Made by a program: the position numbers and the translations under genes. Below, one piece after another: positions 13,791 through 24,011 of a DNA stretch of 64,000 nt. The notes below the pieces were generated by a model that saw only the letters and a list, made by a program, of their open reading frames with translations, did no database searches and was not told the DNA's origin. The number at the start of each line of letters is the position of its first letter. The stretch's first letter is position 1. Origin of the DNA: Thermodesulfobacteriota bacterium (GTDB lineage Bacteria > Desulfobacterota > Desulfobacteria > Desulfobacterales > C00003060); assembly GCA_034189385.1 (NCBI GenBank), contig JAXHVD010000004.1:64001-128000 (forward strand), given 5' to 3'.

Positions 13791-15317
13791 ATGAGTAGAT
13801 TCCTCTATACGGCACGGGCCGTCTTCCTGGGGCTATTGACCACACAGATCATAGCCACGCTTCATGTCTATCTCTCCAATGCAGACCTTTACCGCACCGT
13901 TTCGGCAATATCAGAGGCAGGCTATCTTCCAATTCCGAACCACCGTGTGGCATCCAGTCTCAACCAGTTTGGCCCTGCCCTCTGTGGGGGGCTGTTCTTC
14001 ACGCTGAGCATTGGTGCAGGTCTTTCCATCCTGTGGGTCTGCTGTGCCTGGATCTGGGATCGCCTTTTCGGCCGTAACTGTTCCCTTTTGATTCCCCTTG
14101 GACTTCTTTGGGTGGGCATGGCTGCGGCCATGAACAGCCAAGGCTTTTCGCCCATAGTGACCTCCTATTTCATAGTGACTCCCTTGGTGGTCTTTTGGGC
14201 TGCCTTGAAATGGATGCCCAATGAGGGGGAAAAGTGGGTATGGGTAAACAGGCTTACTCCCATCCTTCCTATTGTCCTCTTAACGCTCATATGGACAGCC
14301 CACACTATGTGGACGGCCCATAGGCATAAGTCATCCTTTGCGGATATTTTGTTTGAGGATATCAGGGATTACCTGTTGCTCTCAAACCCGGTGGGGGAAA
14401 AAGTGGATCACTTCTACTACCGCTACACCCTCTACCCGGCAGAGGTCTTTAAGTCCTTGGACCAGAAAACGCTCAAAACATGCCACGTAGCATCCATCAA
14501 GGACCAGGCAGTTGCCCGGAAGATAGAACACACGCTGATCCATTACGACTATCTCCCTGTGGCTGCAAGGGCGCCGATCGATTTGGATATCGCGGCATCG
14601 GCGGACGTGCTCTCGTTCAGGTACCGTGGCAAGACGATACTTCACACCTCGTACAAGGAATTTTTCTCTCAGCAGAAAAAGATGTTGACCTTTTTTTCTG
14701 CTGAAACAGACAGGCACGGGCCCTTTCGTCAGGCCACCATCCTGTGCCTTGTTCTAGGATTTCCAATCACTTTGTATGTGATGGTCTTTGCCTTGATCCA
14801 CTTTGTGTTTGGATTCCTGGTTGGTCCAAAACGCTATTCTTTGATCACAGGGGCTTTGTGTTTTCTTATAGGCCTGGCCCTATTGGCTCCCCTTCGCATC
14901 GGACGCTCAAAGACGACCGACGCCATGAACGTATCCAAAGCCCTTGCCTCTGAGTACTGGCAACAGAGGATACTGGCCTTGAGAAGGGTGGTAGAGAAGA
15001 GAATCGAGATCGGAGACCTTCCTGTCTATCACAAGATGATGACCAGCCCTCATGTGCCTGAGCGGTACTGGTTGGCCAAGGCCCTGGGAGAGAGTCGAGA
15101 TCCCGGGACCTATGAGGACCTTGTGACGCTCCTGGATGACCCTCATCCCAATGTGGTCTCCATGGCATTCTGTGGCCTGGGGCAACGAGGAGACAAAAAG
15201 GCTGTGCGCAACATCTTGGAAAGGATTGAGACCTCAGATCACTGGTACAATCAGTGGTATGCCTATAACGCTCTTCGAGATCTTGGCTGGGAACAACGGC
15301 CCGTCGCCTCGCAGTAA
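13791..15317 (+). CDS. Membrane protein with C-terminal HEAT-like repeats
   Basis: Multiple TM segments; ERYWLAKALG...LLDDPHPNVVSMAFCGLG. Confidence 0.7.
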   Translation: MSRFLYTARAVFLGLLTTQIIATLHVYLSNADLYRTVSAISEAGYLPIPNHRVASSLNQFGPALCGGLFFTLSIGAGLSILWVCCAWIWDRLFGRNCSLLIPLGLLWVGMAAAMNSQGFSPIVTSYFIVTPLVVFWAALKWMPNEGEKWVWVNRLTPILPIVLLTLIWTAHTMWTAHRHKSSFADILFEDIRDYLLLSNPVGEKVDHFYYRYTLYPAEVFKSLDQKTLKTCHVASIKDQAVARKIEHTLIHYDYLPVAARAPIDLDIAASADVLSFRYRGKTILHTSYKEFFSQQKKMLTFFSAETDRHGPFRQATILCLVLGFPITLYVMVFALIHFVFGFLVGPKRYSLITGALCFLIGLALLAPLRIGRSKTTDAMNVSKALASEYWQQRILALRRVVEKRIEIGDLPVYHKMMTSPHVPERYWLAKALGESRDPGTYEDLVTLLDDPHPNVVSMAFCGLGQRGDKKAVRNILERIETSDHWYNQWYAYNALRDLGWEQRPVASQ

Positions 15318-15451: not shown

Positions 15452-17839
15452 TCAAGGTGTGTTTGTGTGGTCGTGGCTCATTAATACTAAAGAACACCCT
15501 AGGAGCACCCCCCAAACCAGAATCACCACAGGCATACCGTGACCATTGCCCATCCCGCCCGAGCCAGCCGCCGCAATAAAACAGGTGCCGCCACCGCCGC
15601 TGGTATCTTTCGGCAATCCCACCCCGCCGGTCTCCAAGATATACCCATTCACCATTCGGTCAGCATCGCCGTCGCCACCGTCGGTGAACTCCAAGGCAAC
15701 AGAGGTCCTGTCTCCACTGAAGGTGGCATGCTCGGAGTAGTCATACCAGCCCGTGATAGGGTCATATCTGTACCATTTTGAGCCCTTGGGAGCTGCGTCC
15801 GAGAGGTGCACGACCGCTGTGGCCGCGCCATCCTCGCTTGTGGCCTTTAACCTGAAACGAATAAGTCCAAATGGGAACCGGTCAGGCCTGTTGATCCGTT
15901 CTTCAACGTCCTCAGGATCAATTGATTCAAAATATTCCAAAAAGCTATGGGCGTCTCCAGGGCTCACACCGATGGCTTTGTCTCCTGTGACACCCAGAGC
16001 TTTCACTGCCAAGTCTCCTGCCACTTGGCCTTCTGGGGCTTCCTGCTCAGCCGGAACCCCAGTGGAGATGACACGCCAAATAGCGAGGCCGCCGATGACC
16101 CCAGTAGGTGTCTGCGTGGTCACATAGAGGGAACTGCCATCAAATGCGATGCCCTGCACATCGTGGGAGGTCGTGGCTAGCTCAGTCTTCGTGGGACCCT
16201 GAATCTGAAAAACCTTTTTTCCTGCACCAGTGGTCACATAGACAAGGTCATTATATCCGTACACGGCACCAACCAGGCCGTCTTCAAAAACGAGATAATC
16301 CAAATGGGTCATCTCGCCTGAAGCAGCATCAATAAGATGGAAATAGCCGCTGCCGCCCCACACCGATTCCCCATACACCAGGGTCGTCTCATCGCTAAAA
16401 ATGATCGGACCGTTTCCACCTTCATGGGGCTGGGGGAAACTGGCCCTTTCGATGGCAGCCGTGAACCCACTGTTGACCTGATACAGATACATGTTTCCCG
16501 GAGGAAAGTCCCCTGAGGCAAACCAGATGACGTCTGTCCAGGGATTCTGGGTAAAGGAAAAGATGCTACCCTGGGCGCCGGAAGGGAAAGAGGCTACGGA
16601 AGGCACAGAAGCCGTTAAGTCAATGCGATAGATCTTGTCCGTGTTGCCGTTGTCGTGGAAGTAGAGATAATGGTCGCGGCTAATCAGAAAACCAGAAGGG
16701 CCAAAGCCGAAATCAGGTTCCTCGCTCAGATCTAAGACCTCTTTCTTGTCCCCTGTGATGAGGTGATAGGCGTAGATTTTGCCATCATGGCCAGCGTAGA
16801 TCAACTGATGGTCATGATAGGCAAGGGCGCTGTTCCAGGCAAAGGCCGCAGGATCGGGCTCCCCCAGGTACCTGGCGCGATAGGGAGGTGTGGGCACCAC
16901 TTGAACGGCCACGTCTGGGTTCCACAGCCCATGGAAGCTGATCGCGCCATCGTCCTGTCCCCCTGAAAATGGTACCTGTGTACCGACATAAAAAGACATG
17001 CCATCAAAGGCCAGACCCTGGGCATCATCAACGGTCGTGGCTATTGGCGTCTTGGCGGTGCCCTGCACTTCATAGATGGTTTTGCCTCCACCGGAAGTGG
17101 CATAGACCACCTGGTTGTAGCCGTAGGCAGCGCTGGCCAGGCCGCCATCAAAGACTAGATAATCCTCAGCAGCCATGTCCCCTGTGATGGAATCGACCAG
17201 ATGGAAATAGCCATCACCTCCCCAGACGGACTCCCCGTAAAGGAGCGTGGTTGTTCCGTTGAAAATGATTGGGCCGCTGCCACCTTCATGGGGTTGCGGA
17301 AAGGTCGCCCGTTGGGTAGCCCTGGTAAAGGCCCGATCTACCTCGAATAGATACATGTCTCCAGGGGGAAAGTCTGCCGAGGCGAACCAGAGCACATCTG
17401 TCCAGGGGTTCTCGGCAAAGCTAAAGATGCTACCAGAGGCAGCCGTGTCAACGGTTTCAAGATCAGGAGGCCAAGTGGTCGTGAGATCAATACGGTATAT
17501 GTTCTTGGTCTTGCCGTTGTCATGGAAGTAAAGGTAGTTGTCATGGCTGAGCAAGAAGCCGGAAGGGCCAAAACCAAATTTGGGATCACTGCTCAGGTCC
17601 AGCACCTCACTAGACGTGGCATTGGTCAGATCATAGGCGTAGATCTTCTGATCGTTGGCCGGATAGATCAATTGACGCTCATAGTAGCAAATGGAGCTGT
17701 TCCAGGTGAAGGGAGTCGGATAAGGAGTTTCAAGTGGTGAGGACTGCCAAAAATCTGTGGGCGTAATAGCTGCCGATAAACTCTCTCCCAACACAAACGC
17801 AAAAGACACGGCAAAGGCCATGACCATGAATTTTTTCAT
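15452..17839 (-). CDS. Secreted/surface protein: two tandem beta-propeller-like repeats, choice-of-anchor-U-like domain, GGGG-CFI-type C-terminal anchor
   Basis: Signal peptide MKKFMVMAFAV; duplicated block (FGFGPSGFL...YLYFHDNG...YGESVWGG); FPFGLIRF...WYRYDPITGW...DGGDGDAD; GGGGGTCFIAAAG plus TM helix. Confidence 0.75.
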   Translation of the reverse strand: MKKFMVMAFAVSFAFVLGESLSAAITPTDFWQSSPLETPYPTPFTWNSSICYYERQLIYPANDQKIYAYDLTNATSSEVLDLSSDPKFGFGPSGFLLSHDNYLYFHDNGKTKNIYRIDLTTTWPPDLETVDTAASGSIFSFAENPWTDVLWFASADFPPGDMYLFEVDRAFTRATQRATFPQPHEGGSGPIIFNGTTTLLYGESVWGGDGYFHLVDSITGDMAAEDYLVFDGGLASAAYGYNQVVYATSGGGKTIYEVQGTAKTPIATTVDDAQGLAFDGMSFYVGTQVPFSGGQDDGAISFHGLWNPDVAVQVVPTPPYRARYLGEPDPAAFAWNSALAYHDHQLIYAGHDGKIYAYHLITGDKKEVLDLSEEPDFGFGPSGFLISRDHYLYFHDNGNTDKIYRIDLTASVPSVASFPSGAQGSIFSFTQNPWTDVIWFASGDFPPGNMYLYQVNSGFTAAIERASFPQPHEGGNGPIIFSDETTLVYGESVWGGSGYFHLIDAASGEMTHLDYLVFEDGLVGAVYGYNDLVYVTTGAGKKVFQIQGPTKTELATTSHDVQGIAFDGSSLYVTTQTPTGVIGGLAIWRVISTGVPAEQEAPEGQVAGDLAVKALGVTGDKAIGVSPGDAHSFLEYFESIDPEDVEERINRPDRFPFGLIRFRLKATSEDGAATAVVHLSDAAPKGSKWYRYDPITGWYDYSEHATFSGDRTSVALEFTDGGDGDADRMVNGYILETGGVGLPKDTSGGGGTCFIAAAGSGGMGNGHGMPVVILVWGVLLGCSLVLMSHDHTNTP

Positions 17840-17887
17840 GACATTACTCCCCTGCAATGAGGATTACTTCCCGCCATGTGCCGCGAT

Positions 17888-17942
17888 AAAGGGCAAAAAA
17901 ATCCCCAGACTGACCACGTCAGCCTGGGGATGTCCCTTTTTT
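17888..17942 (-). terminator. Riboswitch expression-platform terminator
   Basis: Minus strand ATCCCCAGGCTGAC-GTG-GTCAGTCTGGGGAT followed by a T-run. Confidence 0.7.
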
Positions 17943-18000
17943 ACCCACAAACTGCATCGCGTCCACAATCCAGCACCGTCGATTGTAACGCAATCTTCTC

Positions 18001-18168
18001 CTGCGGCAGGTCTTCTGGCTCTCGGATCACCCTACGGACCGCACCTTCCCATCCCCCTTCTGGAGAACAGTGGCATAGTTGCGGCCTTTGTCCCCGATCA
18101 CAGCGGCGGGCCCACTCCCGATTTGAACGGGATTCCCTATTAAGCCCTAACGGGCGCCACAAATTTGT
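18001..18168 (-). ncRNA. Cobalamin (AdoCbl) riboswitch
   Basis: Minus strand AATAGGGAATCCCGTTCAAATCGGGAG...CCCGCCGCTGTGA...GCCACTG...GGGAAGG...GAGCCAGAAGACCTGCC (B12 box); TTGACA-17-TATGTA promoter just upstream. Confidence 0.95.
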
Positions 18169-18257
18169 ACATAAACCAAAATGTCCCTAGTGTCAACTGT
18201 TGCCCAAACCGATAAGCATCGACCGCGTGCGACCGTGAGCGTCTCCTTGCTTCTACC

Positions 18258-23147: not shown

Positions 23148-24011
23148 CTACTGGAGCAGATACCATGGGTCAGGCATCTGATATGCCGGGATGGTGGAGT
23201 GATAGTGCATGACCTTGTCGAACTTGTCAATAACACCGGAGGCCATGGTGTCCTCTGAGTAATTTGTCTCGCTCACGAGGTTAGGCGAGGTGCCACCTGG
23301 TGTATAAGCGGAGTCACCTTCCATCAACCTGACCAGCATGGAGGCAGATGCCGTGCCGATACCCTCTGCGGAGATCTGATGATTAAGAGACGGCGGGCCT
23401 GTGGCTGTCACATCTGAATCCGTGTGAGATACCATAATACTCGTGGTCAACGTATCACTCCCGGCTGCGATGAACTCATTGGTTGCTGGTATAGTCTCAG
23501 CGACTGCCCAGGGACAAAGTGAAGGCATGTCACCCAACCCTGCGCTGTCTCCATTGGCAATAATACTCAGACCCACCCTTTCCTTGTCCTGGGCCGTTGC
23601 GATGAGACTCGCCTGTGAAGCCACATATCCTATGTCCTTACTGACCTTTAGGTTCGGTTCATTGTCTGATGTAGCATCAAAGCTGTTCTTAAACTCAATG
23701 AGACCATCAATGGCATCCAGTTCATTGGAATAAACGATCTGGGCGGCCCGGCCGCCGGCATCAAGATATTGCTCTATATTGCCTTGACCTACGGTGCTAG
23801 ATCCATTCTCTTCTGTATCGTGCATCCACGTCCAGGTAATGGACTGAACTGCTTCTAAATCCCCCGCAACCTCCACATCGGTATTGAGACTAATGCCCAG
23901 GCCGGCTGGTGGCGGTGGCACCGGAGGACTTGCCAAGCCAAGGGTGCCCATGCAACAGACAAAGACGATGGTCAAGCAAAAAAGCAAAATATTATCAACA
24001 AGTTTTATCAT
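23148..24011 (-). CDS. Secreted beta-rich protein resembling the Methanomicrobiales sheath-protein-like family
   Basis: Signal peptide; motifs LCPW...PATNE..AAGS, LNHQI, GTASA, YSEDTMASGVIDKFDKVMHYHS; own promoter TTGACA-17-TAAAAA at 24079-24107. Confidence 0.55.
   Translation of the reverse strand: MIKLVDNILLFCLTIVFVCCMGTLGLASPPVPPPPAGLGISLNTDVEVAGDLEAVQSITWTWMHDTEENGSSTVGQGNIEQYLDAGGRAAQIVYSNELDAIDGLIEFKNSFDATSDNEPNLKVSKDIGYVASQASLIATAQDKERVGLSIIANGDSAGLGDMPSLCPWAVAETIPATNEFIAAGSDTLTTSIMVSHTDSDVTATGPPSLNHQISAEGIGTASASMLVRLMEGDSAYTPGGTSPNLVSETNYSEDTMASGVIDKFDKVMHYHSTIPAYQMPDPWYLLQ

Follow-up and report, generated by a model that had tools for sequence, protein, structure and literature searches.

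Nearly all characterised proteins that capture vitamin B12 outside the cell come from gut Bacteroidota (PMC6143338, PMC13616437). BtuG of Bacteroides is a seven-bladed beta-propeller (PMC6143338, PMC13616437), and a strict one-to-one arrangement in which the capture protein is a lid on its receptor has been described for Bacteroidota (10.1101/2023.03.17.533168). We analysed a gene of a Thermodesulfobacteriota bacterium that lies behind a cobalamin riboswitch and encodes a 795-residue protein, P0001, with two predicted propellers. It is located in a stretch of 64,000 nucleotides (contig JAXHVD010000004.1, positions 64,001 to 128,000, assembly GCA_034189385.1), the whole of which is called the window below. 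P0001 is probably an exported, tethered cobamide-capture protein that would feed uptake of the TonB/BtuFCD type; we infer from genomic context that its family binds cobamides.

The results of our comparison of homologous loci showed a near-universal link of this family to cobalamin switches and uptake genes. All 42 loci of the context set (9 from genomes and 33 from metagenomes) were scanned with Rfam, and 29 of them have a cobalamin riboswitch upstream on the same strand, at 205-435 nt from the first repeat in 25 loci and at 2.9-3.4 kb, across btuF/C/D-like genes, in four. The contigs of the other 13 loci are cut short (ten have at most 257 nt upstream and three begin inside a btuC- or btuD-like gene), and every locus with a fully visible upstream region carries the riboswitch. 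When the loci were clustered at 70% identity, 13 of the 15 clusters held a riboswitch locus, and the remaining two consist of truncated contigs. By our own arithmetic, the chance of a switch within 450 nt of a given gene is about 0.03% (five switches in the 4.13 Mb of this genome). An earlier reading of the window made from the sequence only had proposed examining whether homologues also follow B12 riboswitches, and the link proved stronger than expected.

Where at least 400 nt of downstream sequence is available (31 loci), the next gene encodes a TonB-dependent receptor in 24 cases (the receptor call is that of a protein cluster, with identity verified on seven proteins). Behind this receptor there is usually a gene for a conserved unnamed protein that has a choice-of-anchor U domain (anchor U) of its own, and then btuF/C or exbB/exbD. 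At least one of the riboswitch, the receptor or the ATP-binding cassette (ABC) transporter genes is present in 40 of the 42 loci. The other recurring neighbours are ExbB and ExbD (four loci each) and MeaB together with BtuR in one near-identical locus pair. The family thus mostly occupies the position that btuG has in Bacteroides, and the lone gene of the window is a minority layout: the propeller gene stands alone under its own riboswitch in the window and at loci L017-L021, L042 and L046. In genomes G040 and G366, both divergent, the order is riboswitch, btuF, btuD, btuC, propeller, a BioB-like radical S-adenosylmethionine (SAM) gene and a second propeller. The BioB-like genes between two propeller genes at L079:9927-10913 (-) and L078:10144-11136 (-) may have a cobamide-related role or may be insertions. 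Large uncharacterised genes lie right after the propeller at L014:5541-9317 and L015:9119-10669, in riboswitch-btuFCD loci that have no receptor, and the first of them carries anchor U. A third genome with the propeller, G231, is represented by the same contig as locus L010.

The features of the window locus are the following:

18168..18196 (-): possible promoter with a perfect TTGACA, a 17-nt spacer and a weak -10 TATGTA (read by eye, weak)
17988..18176 (-): cobalamin riboswitch aptamer (RF00174; 94.8 bits, E 2.5e-22, model positions 1-189)
17891..17931 (-): intrinsic-terminator-like hairpin and U run, expression platform (14 pairs, 8 of them G-C)
17847..17852 (-): ribosome-binding site GGGGAG, read from the sequence and paired by a small hairpin in the predicted fold
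15452..17839 (-): gene for the 795-residue double-propeller protein P0001 (ATG at 17839, stop at 15452)
17771..17839 (-): Sec-type signal peptide, residues 1 to about 23, with no lipobox cysteine (sequence pattern and hydrophobicity)
16925..17770 (-): propeller repeat 1, residues ~24-305, a predicted six-bladed beta-propeller (AlphaFold2, fold matches and the hidden Markov model (HMM) of the family)
16079..16903 (-): propeller repeat 2, residues ~313-587 (59% identity to repeat 1, full-length model, fold matches and family HMM)
15617..15880 (-): choice-of-anchor U match, residues 654-741, within a modelled beta domain of residues ~610-742 (NF041766 and model)
15452..15598 (-): C-terminal tail with a Gly run, Cys753-Phe-Ile, a spacer, a hydrophobic helix at ~769-787 and a short non-basic end (sequence and hydrophobicity)

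The aptamer is the sole Rfam match within the window; the covariance scan covered the whole model at a score far above the gathering score of 31.5. The stem of the terminator hairpin spans 17931-17901, is followed by the U run and is present in the predicted folds (the terminator scan by itself discriminates weakly, with 5 found vs 4.2 expected), and the 181-nt expression region between the aptamer and the start codon folds with z = -5.3 relative to shuffled sequences. No antiterminator was found in the predicted folds of the leader. The GGGGAG lies 7 nt upstream of the ATG, and its pairing in the predicted fold suggests that translation may also be controlled. The possible promoter sits right at the 5' end of the aptamer and was not reported by a consensus promoter scan.

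Comparison of the two repeats of P0001 showed that 157 of 266 residues are identical (E 5e-120), with 67% identity at the DNA level, and that YLYFHDNG, FPQPHEGG and YGESVWGG are present in both. Both repeats are acidic (34 D+E vs 11 K+R and 30 D+E vs 13 K+R); the binding face of BtuG2 has been described as negative (PMC6143338). The anchor U model NF041766 matched P0001 with 69.2 bits against a cut-off of 32. On its upstream side the gene has a PilZ-domain gene for a neighbour, and a convergent HEAT-repeat gene follows it, so that no btu or cob gene adjoins it. The sequence-only reading had described these same features, namely a cobalamin riboswitch with a terminator ahead of one gene of about 795 codons, two highly similar repeats with three shared motifs, a choice-of-anchor-U-like domain and the absence of btuB, btuFCD or cob neighbours, and all of them held. 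The HEAT-repeat membrane protein (window 13791-15317 (+)) has a 49% relative at L031:12212-12787 (-), just downstream of a complete operon of riboswitch, btuF/D/C, propeller, receptor and partner, hinting that the middle genes were either lost from the window locus or never acquired by it. Elsewhere in the window, 23148-24011 (-) encodes an exported-looking protein of 287 residues that neither Pfam nor NCBIfam matched at E <= 0.1.

The AlphaFold2 model of repeat 1 (282 residues, from a 22-row alignment) reached a predicted local distance difference test (pLDDT) of 95.7 and a predicted template modelling score (pTM) of 0.92, with 23 strands arranged in fours which, together with an N-terminal closing strand, form six blades. 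Mature P0001 was modelled (pLDDT 92.3, pTM 0.90) as two six-bladed propellers and a separate beta domain. Structure prediction had been suggested as a check on the proposal of a beta-propeller like that of BtuG: the propeller stood, each repeat being modelled with a pLDDT of about 96, whereas the six blades, compared with the seven of BtuG, make P0001 an analogue of BtuG and not a member. Among the best 50 matches of each fold search, to which our statements on structural matches refer, the leading ones had Z 20-25 at 6-17% identity, and repeat 1 was matched with Z 25 at 12% identity. The top matches included lactonases, DFPase and other six-bladed enzymes, tied with non-enzymes such as NHL domains and the designed Pizza6. 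Since unrelated propellers tie as best matches, the fold is settled and the function is not. SMP-30/gluconolactonase, DFPase, NHL and EupfF/PycR1 propellers share the overall fold of the repeat (Z 22-25, root-mean-square deviation of 2.6-3.3 A across ~245-270 residues, 6-17% identity) and none of them stands out. Entries of BtuG, BtuH and BtuJ were not among the best 50 matches of any fold search; the Foldseek list was flooded by G-beta chains and uninformative. The Pfam matches of the repeat were propeller-like and all below threshold (26 of 46 members matched DUF5050 at E <= 0.01), searches of PDB sequences gave nothing useful for P0001 or the repeat alignment, and an Atlas search of the repeat returned only unnamed or DUF4394, DUF6923 and NHL propeller clusters with low shared-feature counts.

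These matches bear on a possible role as an exported enzyme with cobamides or their carriers as substrates, such as a hydrolase that would cut back the nucleotide loop or release the cofactor ahead of import; we consider this role rather improbable. The six-bladed enzymes at the top of the matches would fit it, and so would the invariant or near-invariant His83-Asp84-Asn85, Ser131, Asp133, Glu180 and His190 of repeat 1. However, the matches are generic (Z 20-25, 6-16% identity) and tied with non-enzymes, and repeated tandem doubling fits a binder better. The metal ligands of SMP-30/gluconolactonase/DFPase enzymes are conserved acidic or Asn residues at the central tunnel, and in SMP-30 and DFPase they lie at the starts of the inner strands; as judged from topology, no acidic residues of the repeat are conserved at those starts. 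The full set of conserved polar residues of repeat 1, which further includes Asp40, Asp58, Asp77, Arg93, Thr109 and Asn121, could be structural, ligand-binding or catalytic.

Comparison of the family with BtuG of Bacteroides showed that both are exported beta-propellers under cobalamin riboswitches, found beside TonB-dependent receptors in loci of the btuFCD type (PMC6143338, PMC13616437), although the receptor adjoins in 24/31 loci of the family and is absent beside the window copy. The family differs from BtuG (DUF5074/PF16819) in its six blades, in a C-terminal Cys/transmembrane (TM) tail instead of an N-terminal lipoprotein anchor, in having one to three propellers per chain, in its occurrence in Desulfobacterota rather than Bacteroidota, and in often having no adjoining receptor. 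PF16819 did not match P0001 at E <= 0.1 and was not among the 20 families that any of 46 members matched at E <= 0.01; there is no Cys in the signal region of P0001, and a simple lipobox pattern was found in 0 of 58 proteins. Like BtuH and BtuJ (DUF4465/PF14717), which relay cobamides outside the cell, the family consists of accessory, riboswitch-controlled exported proteins that are modular with spacer domains, but the folds are unrelated, BtuJ being a jelly roll and BtuH having a globular fold of its own (PMC13616437), and the repeat alignment matched neither of them among PDB sequences. By analogy, the family most likely works like BtuG, BtuH and BtuJ and belongs to none of them.

On sequence criteria, the propeller family is small and closed. 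A sequence search found 57 relatives and a profile search 121, and 39 clusters at 50% identity were obtained among 1.84 billion, the last of which is an unrelated match at chance level. The taxa given for members are Thermodesulfobacteriota, Desulfobacterales, Desulfosarcina, Desulfatibacillum/Desulfatibacillaceae and Deltaproteobacteria, and some homologues are assigned by their sources to cultured Desulfatibacillum species. When 400 genomes sampled evenly across the phylum were searched, three besides this one had the propeller (G040, G366 and G231), and a further 11 matches span the anchor part only. The family was not described in the open literature searched, which excluded supplements and subscription papers; regulon tables from comparative genomics, in papers such as PMC3766115, might list members as hypothetical genes.

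Of 146 stored family proteins, 109 retain an intact first repeat; 52 of these carry one propeller, 56 two and one three. A tail of the Cys-Phe-Ile type ends 44 of the 52 single-propeller proteins, which are therefore complete. The description of a stand-alone gene with two repeats is accurate for the window copy; for the family, neither "single" nor "double" is general, and the claim of a bivalent scavenger is weakened, about half of the family having one propeller. In a quick tree of 83 repeats, in which several of the "single" rows are fragments, first repeats were scattered (13 changes, 8 of them forced by strongly supported branches), and both repeats were mutual closest rows in three proteins, a pattern that suggests gene conversion or doubling on several occasions. 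Anchor U (NF041766) matches 34 of 46 aligned members, the other C-terminal modules being FG-GAP, DUF4214, Ig-like (immunoglobulin-like) domains or the tail alone. P0016, a DUF4214 fusion, was the only longer fused form to turn up, which is weak evidence that others are absent.

The C-terminal motif C[FV][IVL] is present in 51 of 58 proteins, all 51 with a hydrophobic stretch behind it and 46 with a basic C-terminal end. With its Gly-rich run, invariant Cys, TM helix and (in 46/51) basic end, the tail resembles MYXO-CTERM, JDVT-CTERM, Synerg-CTERM and CFI_box_CTERM, but it matches no curated model. CFI_box_CTERM (NF041770, 69 positions) gave no match on P0001 at E <= 0.1 and none in 46 members at E <= 0.05 (the P0001 row there lacked the TM part). 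JDVT-CTERM is defined by an Asp-Pro nine residues after a single Cys (10.1101/2023.06.07.544157), and this motif is not in the tail of P0001, which also has no basic end (0 Lys/Arg in the last 12 residues). With signals of the MYXO-CTERM type, CPBP proteases carry out the cleavage and the protein comes to be displayed on the surface (10.1101/2023.06.07.544157; PMC11980579). Proteases of the CPBP/Rce1 family (PF02517) were found in all four genomes checked, with two genes in this genome that might encode a cognate myxosortase; since 11 of 14 control genomes have such proteases too, the finding carries little weight. GspD, the secretin of type II secretion, was above its cut-off in G040, G366 and G231, and its best score in this 90%-complete genome was 162 against a cut-off of 351. 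By analogy with the described signals, surface display of the family is likely and that of this copy plausible. The protein had been called surface-anchored by a GGGG-CFI-TM tail: the GGGG-T-CFI motif and the hydrophobic helix behind it are there, whereas a curated model, a basic end and a GspD above cut-off are not.

Pattern matching in this genome gave 19 proteins, 10 of which are plausible carriers of the motif; six of these ten exported-looking proteins end within about 15 residues of it and have no TM helix after it. Tails with a Gly-/Asp-rich run and Cys-Phe-Ile/Val are found at C1:301044, C1:302057, C8:61976, C16:56951, C20:29785, C20:33357, C32:278, C56:86679 and C64:97108 of this genome (G000). 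The Gly-rich Cys-Phe-Ile tail looks like an uncatalogued sorting signal in which the helix is optional, and it was undescribed in the open literature searched.

The transport genes of this genome lie on other contigs under their own riboswitches. The switch at C56:84306 precedes a receptor and its unnamed anchor-U partner, those at C56:91392 and C32:7894 precede btuF/D/C-like operons, and that at C32:4793 precedes a frameshifted gene whose surviving frame is DUF4465, the BtuJ family (45.5 bits vs a cut-off of 25). DUF4465 proteins bind B12 across divergent members (PMC13398666, PMC13616437). The broken gene stands between this cobalamin riboswitch, a strong one, and an anchor U reading frame, so that this BtuJ-like remnant is linked to the same anchor domain as P0001; at L006:3208-4480 (-) (C32), its middle is apparently interrupted by unrelated sequence and a Gly-rich Cys tail lies behind it. 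The B12 uptake cluster is doubled in the assembly (C32:1-9858, which starts at the contig end, and C56:84306-93456), both copies containing the receptor, its partner, btuC/D/F-like genes, a riboswitch and an adenine deaminase, and this may reflect duplication or mixed strains (contamination 4.2%).

This genome encodes the corrinoid proteins AcsC/D and gave no match above cut-off for CbiF or PF16819 (it is 90% complete), which is consistent with a scavenger. It also bears on a role in capturing cobalt or another metal, cobalamin riboswitches also controlling cobalt uptake: with no CbiF above cut-off, there would be little need here of free cobalt for corrin synthesis. The ABC genes of the family loci are moreover of the Peripla_BP_2/FecCD type, with BtuF as the best NCBIfam match of the binding protein, and no cobalt transporter was annotated among the recurrent neighbours. 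We regard metal capture as very unlikely, even though the repeats have conserved His/Asp/Glu residues, some host genomes make their own corrin ring and the receptors fail the BtuB cut-off.

A second candidate cobamide-binding family is the unnamed domain of about 220 residues found directly after the TonB-dependent receptor at L007:6728-8398 (G000:C56:86727-88397), with a paralogue at L006:317-1846. It is 67-74% identical across loci and is followed by an Ig-like part, anchor U and a Cys-Phe tail. It matched no Pfam, PDB or named Atlas family, its nearest Atlas clusters being mostly "cell surface" proteins of Myxococcota, and the idea of a remote BtuH relative was unsupported by PDB sequence searches or Atlas. 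In G366, a riboswitch, a TonB-dependent receptor and a 555-residue protein are found at L082:1438-5285 (C9). This protein, which matches DUF5074 (the BtuG family) with 23.3 bits, below the cut-off of 27.2, and has an anchor-U-like region as judged by eye and a Cys-Phe-Ile end with no helix, is possibly a BtuG-like protein outside Bacteroidota. A PDB sequence search with it gave nothing useful, and when its profile was compared with that of our repeat family the probability was 7.7%. The same genome has, at L083:1915-7656 (-) (C12), a cobalamin riboswitch followed by a TonB-dependent receptor, a CobN-family chelatase and an ATPase of the energy-coupling factor (ECF) type. The association of anchor U with DUF4465 and DUF5074-like proteins indicates that this display module serves known or likely B12-binding domains. 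However, no switch lies near three of the six anchor-U genes in the genome of P0001, and elsewhere the module is carried together with Ig-like, carbohydrate-binding or cohesin-like domains; it is thus not B12-specific, and the B12 signal belongs to the propeller domain.

Several results weigh against cobamide capture by P0001 or limit it. Kin loci are not independent, and five of the 42 are close kin of the window gene (80-96%). The receptors scored 200 bits at best against a BtuB equivalog cut-off of 599.7, and the BtuF-like protein 111 bits against its own cut-off of 234, so that their B12 role rests on the riboswitch. Seven of the 31 loci have no adjoining receptor (three of the window's clade, two stand-alone single-propeller genes and two with btuFCD upstream). 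G040 and G366 have the propeller and no close relative of the usual receptor, with other riboswitch-linked receptors present, and this speaks against a strict one-to-one lid like that of Bacteroidota. CbiF is present in G040, G366 and G231, and the family is therefore not confined to auxotrophs. The non-basic end of P0001 and the GspD score of this genome, given above, count on the same side. A ligand site is expected to show on one face of a propeller, and the loops of the two faces were equally conserved (0.55 vs 0.53, p = 0.67, on 82 non-redundant repeats of 120, in a crude test with loops assigned from secondary structure and no coordinates), which gives no sequence evidence of a binding pocket. 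A complex prediction of repeat 1 with the TonB-dependent receptor of this genome scored 0.00 and its controls were unfolded, so that it counts neither way.

The equal conservation of the faces would also fit a non-binding accessory of the uptake system, which would share the regulation of the transporters and hold no B12, for instance as a scaffold, a spacer or a vesicle/assembly factor. Beta-propellers are common platforms for protein interaction. BtuL and BtuK2 of Bacteroides, although products of B12 operons, did not bind cobalamin (PMC12751083), so that membership of such an operon is no proof of binding, a further point on the negative side. The propeller, however, keeps its place in B12 loci as its neighbours and its C-terminal module (anchor U, FG-GAP, DUF4214, Ig-like or none) vary, and where it stands alone a riboswitch of its own precedes it; this fits better with a role that depends on the ligand than with one that depends on a single partner. 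We therefore consider an accessory of this kind, comparable to BtuL, unlikely.

Cobamide capture, which we prefer, would proceed as follows. At low cellular B12, the riboswitch would let transcription pass the terminator, as expected from its class. The protein would be exported by Sec and held by its C-terminal Cys-Phe-Ile/TM tail, possibly with cleavage and lipidation at the Cys and then transfer to the outer surface as for MYXO-CTERM proteins, the surface being a likelier location than the periplasm. Each six-bladed propeller would bind one cobamide on a face of its disc, and more cobamide would in this way be available locally to the TonB-dependent receptor and BtuF/C/D-type ABC transporter that are co-regulated with it. 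The second propeller would add capacity or avidity and be dispensable, single forms being common. A broader proposal is more tentative, and we give it somewhat less than even chances: that an extracellular cobamide relay of several proteins arose in Desulfobacterota independently of Bacteroides, with unrelated capture domains (the six-bladed propeller, DUF4465/BtuJ, the DUF5074-like propeller and the receptor-partner domain), displayed by one undescribed Gly-rich Cys-Phe-Ile sorting system with anchor U as a stalk, the propeller being a new B12-binding fold doubled several times for avidity.

The family is directly testable, with a domain of 280 residues, a confident model and Desulfatibacillum homologues which, according to their sources, are in culture. 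Its tail points to an uncatalogued C-terminal sorting signal. If cobamide capture is correct, a non-homologous counterpart of the Bacteroidota proteins in sulfate reducers would be a new cobamide-binding fold, and capture before import would have evolved more than once. Some corrinoid-dependent sediment bacteria are predicted B12 auxotrophs in methane-oxidising consortia (PMC10553843), and the finding would bear on how such bacteria acquire cobamides.

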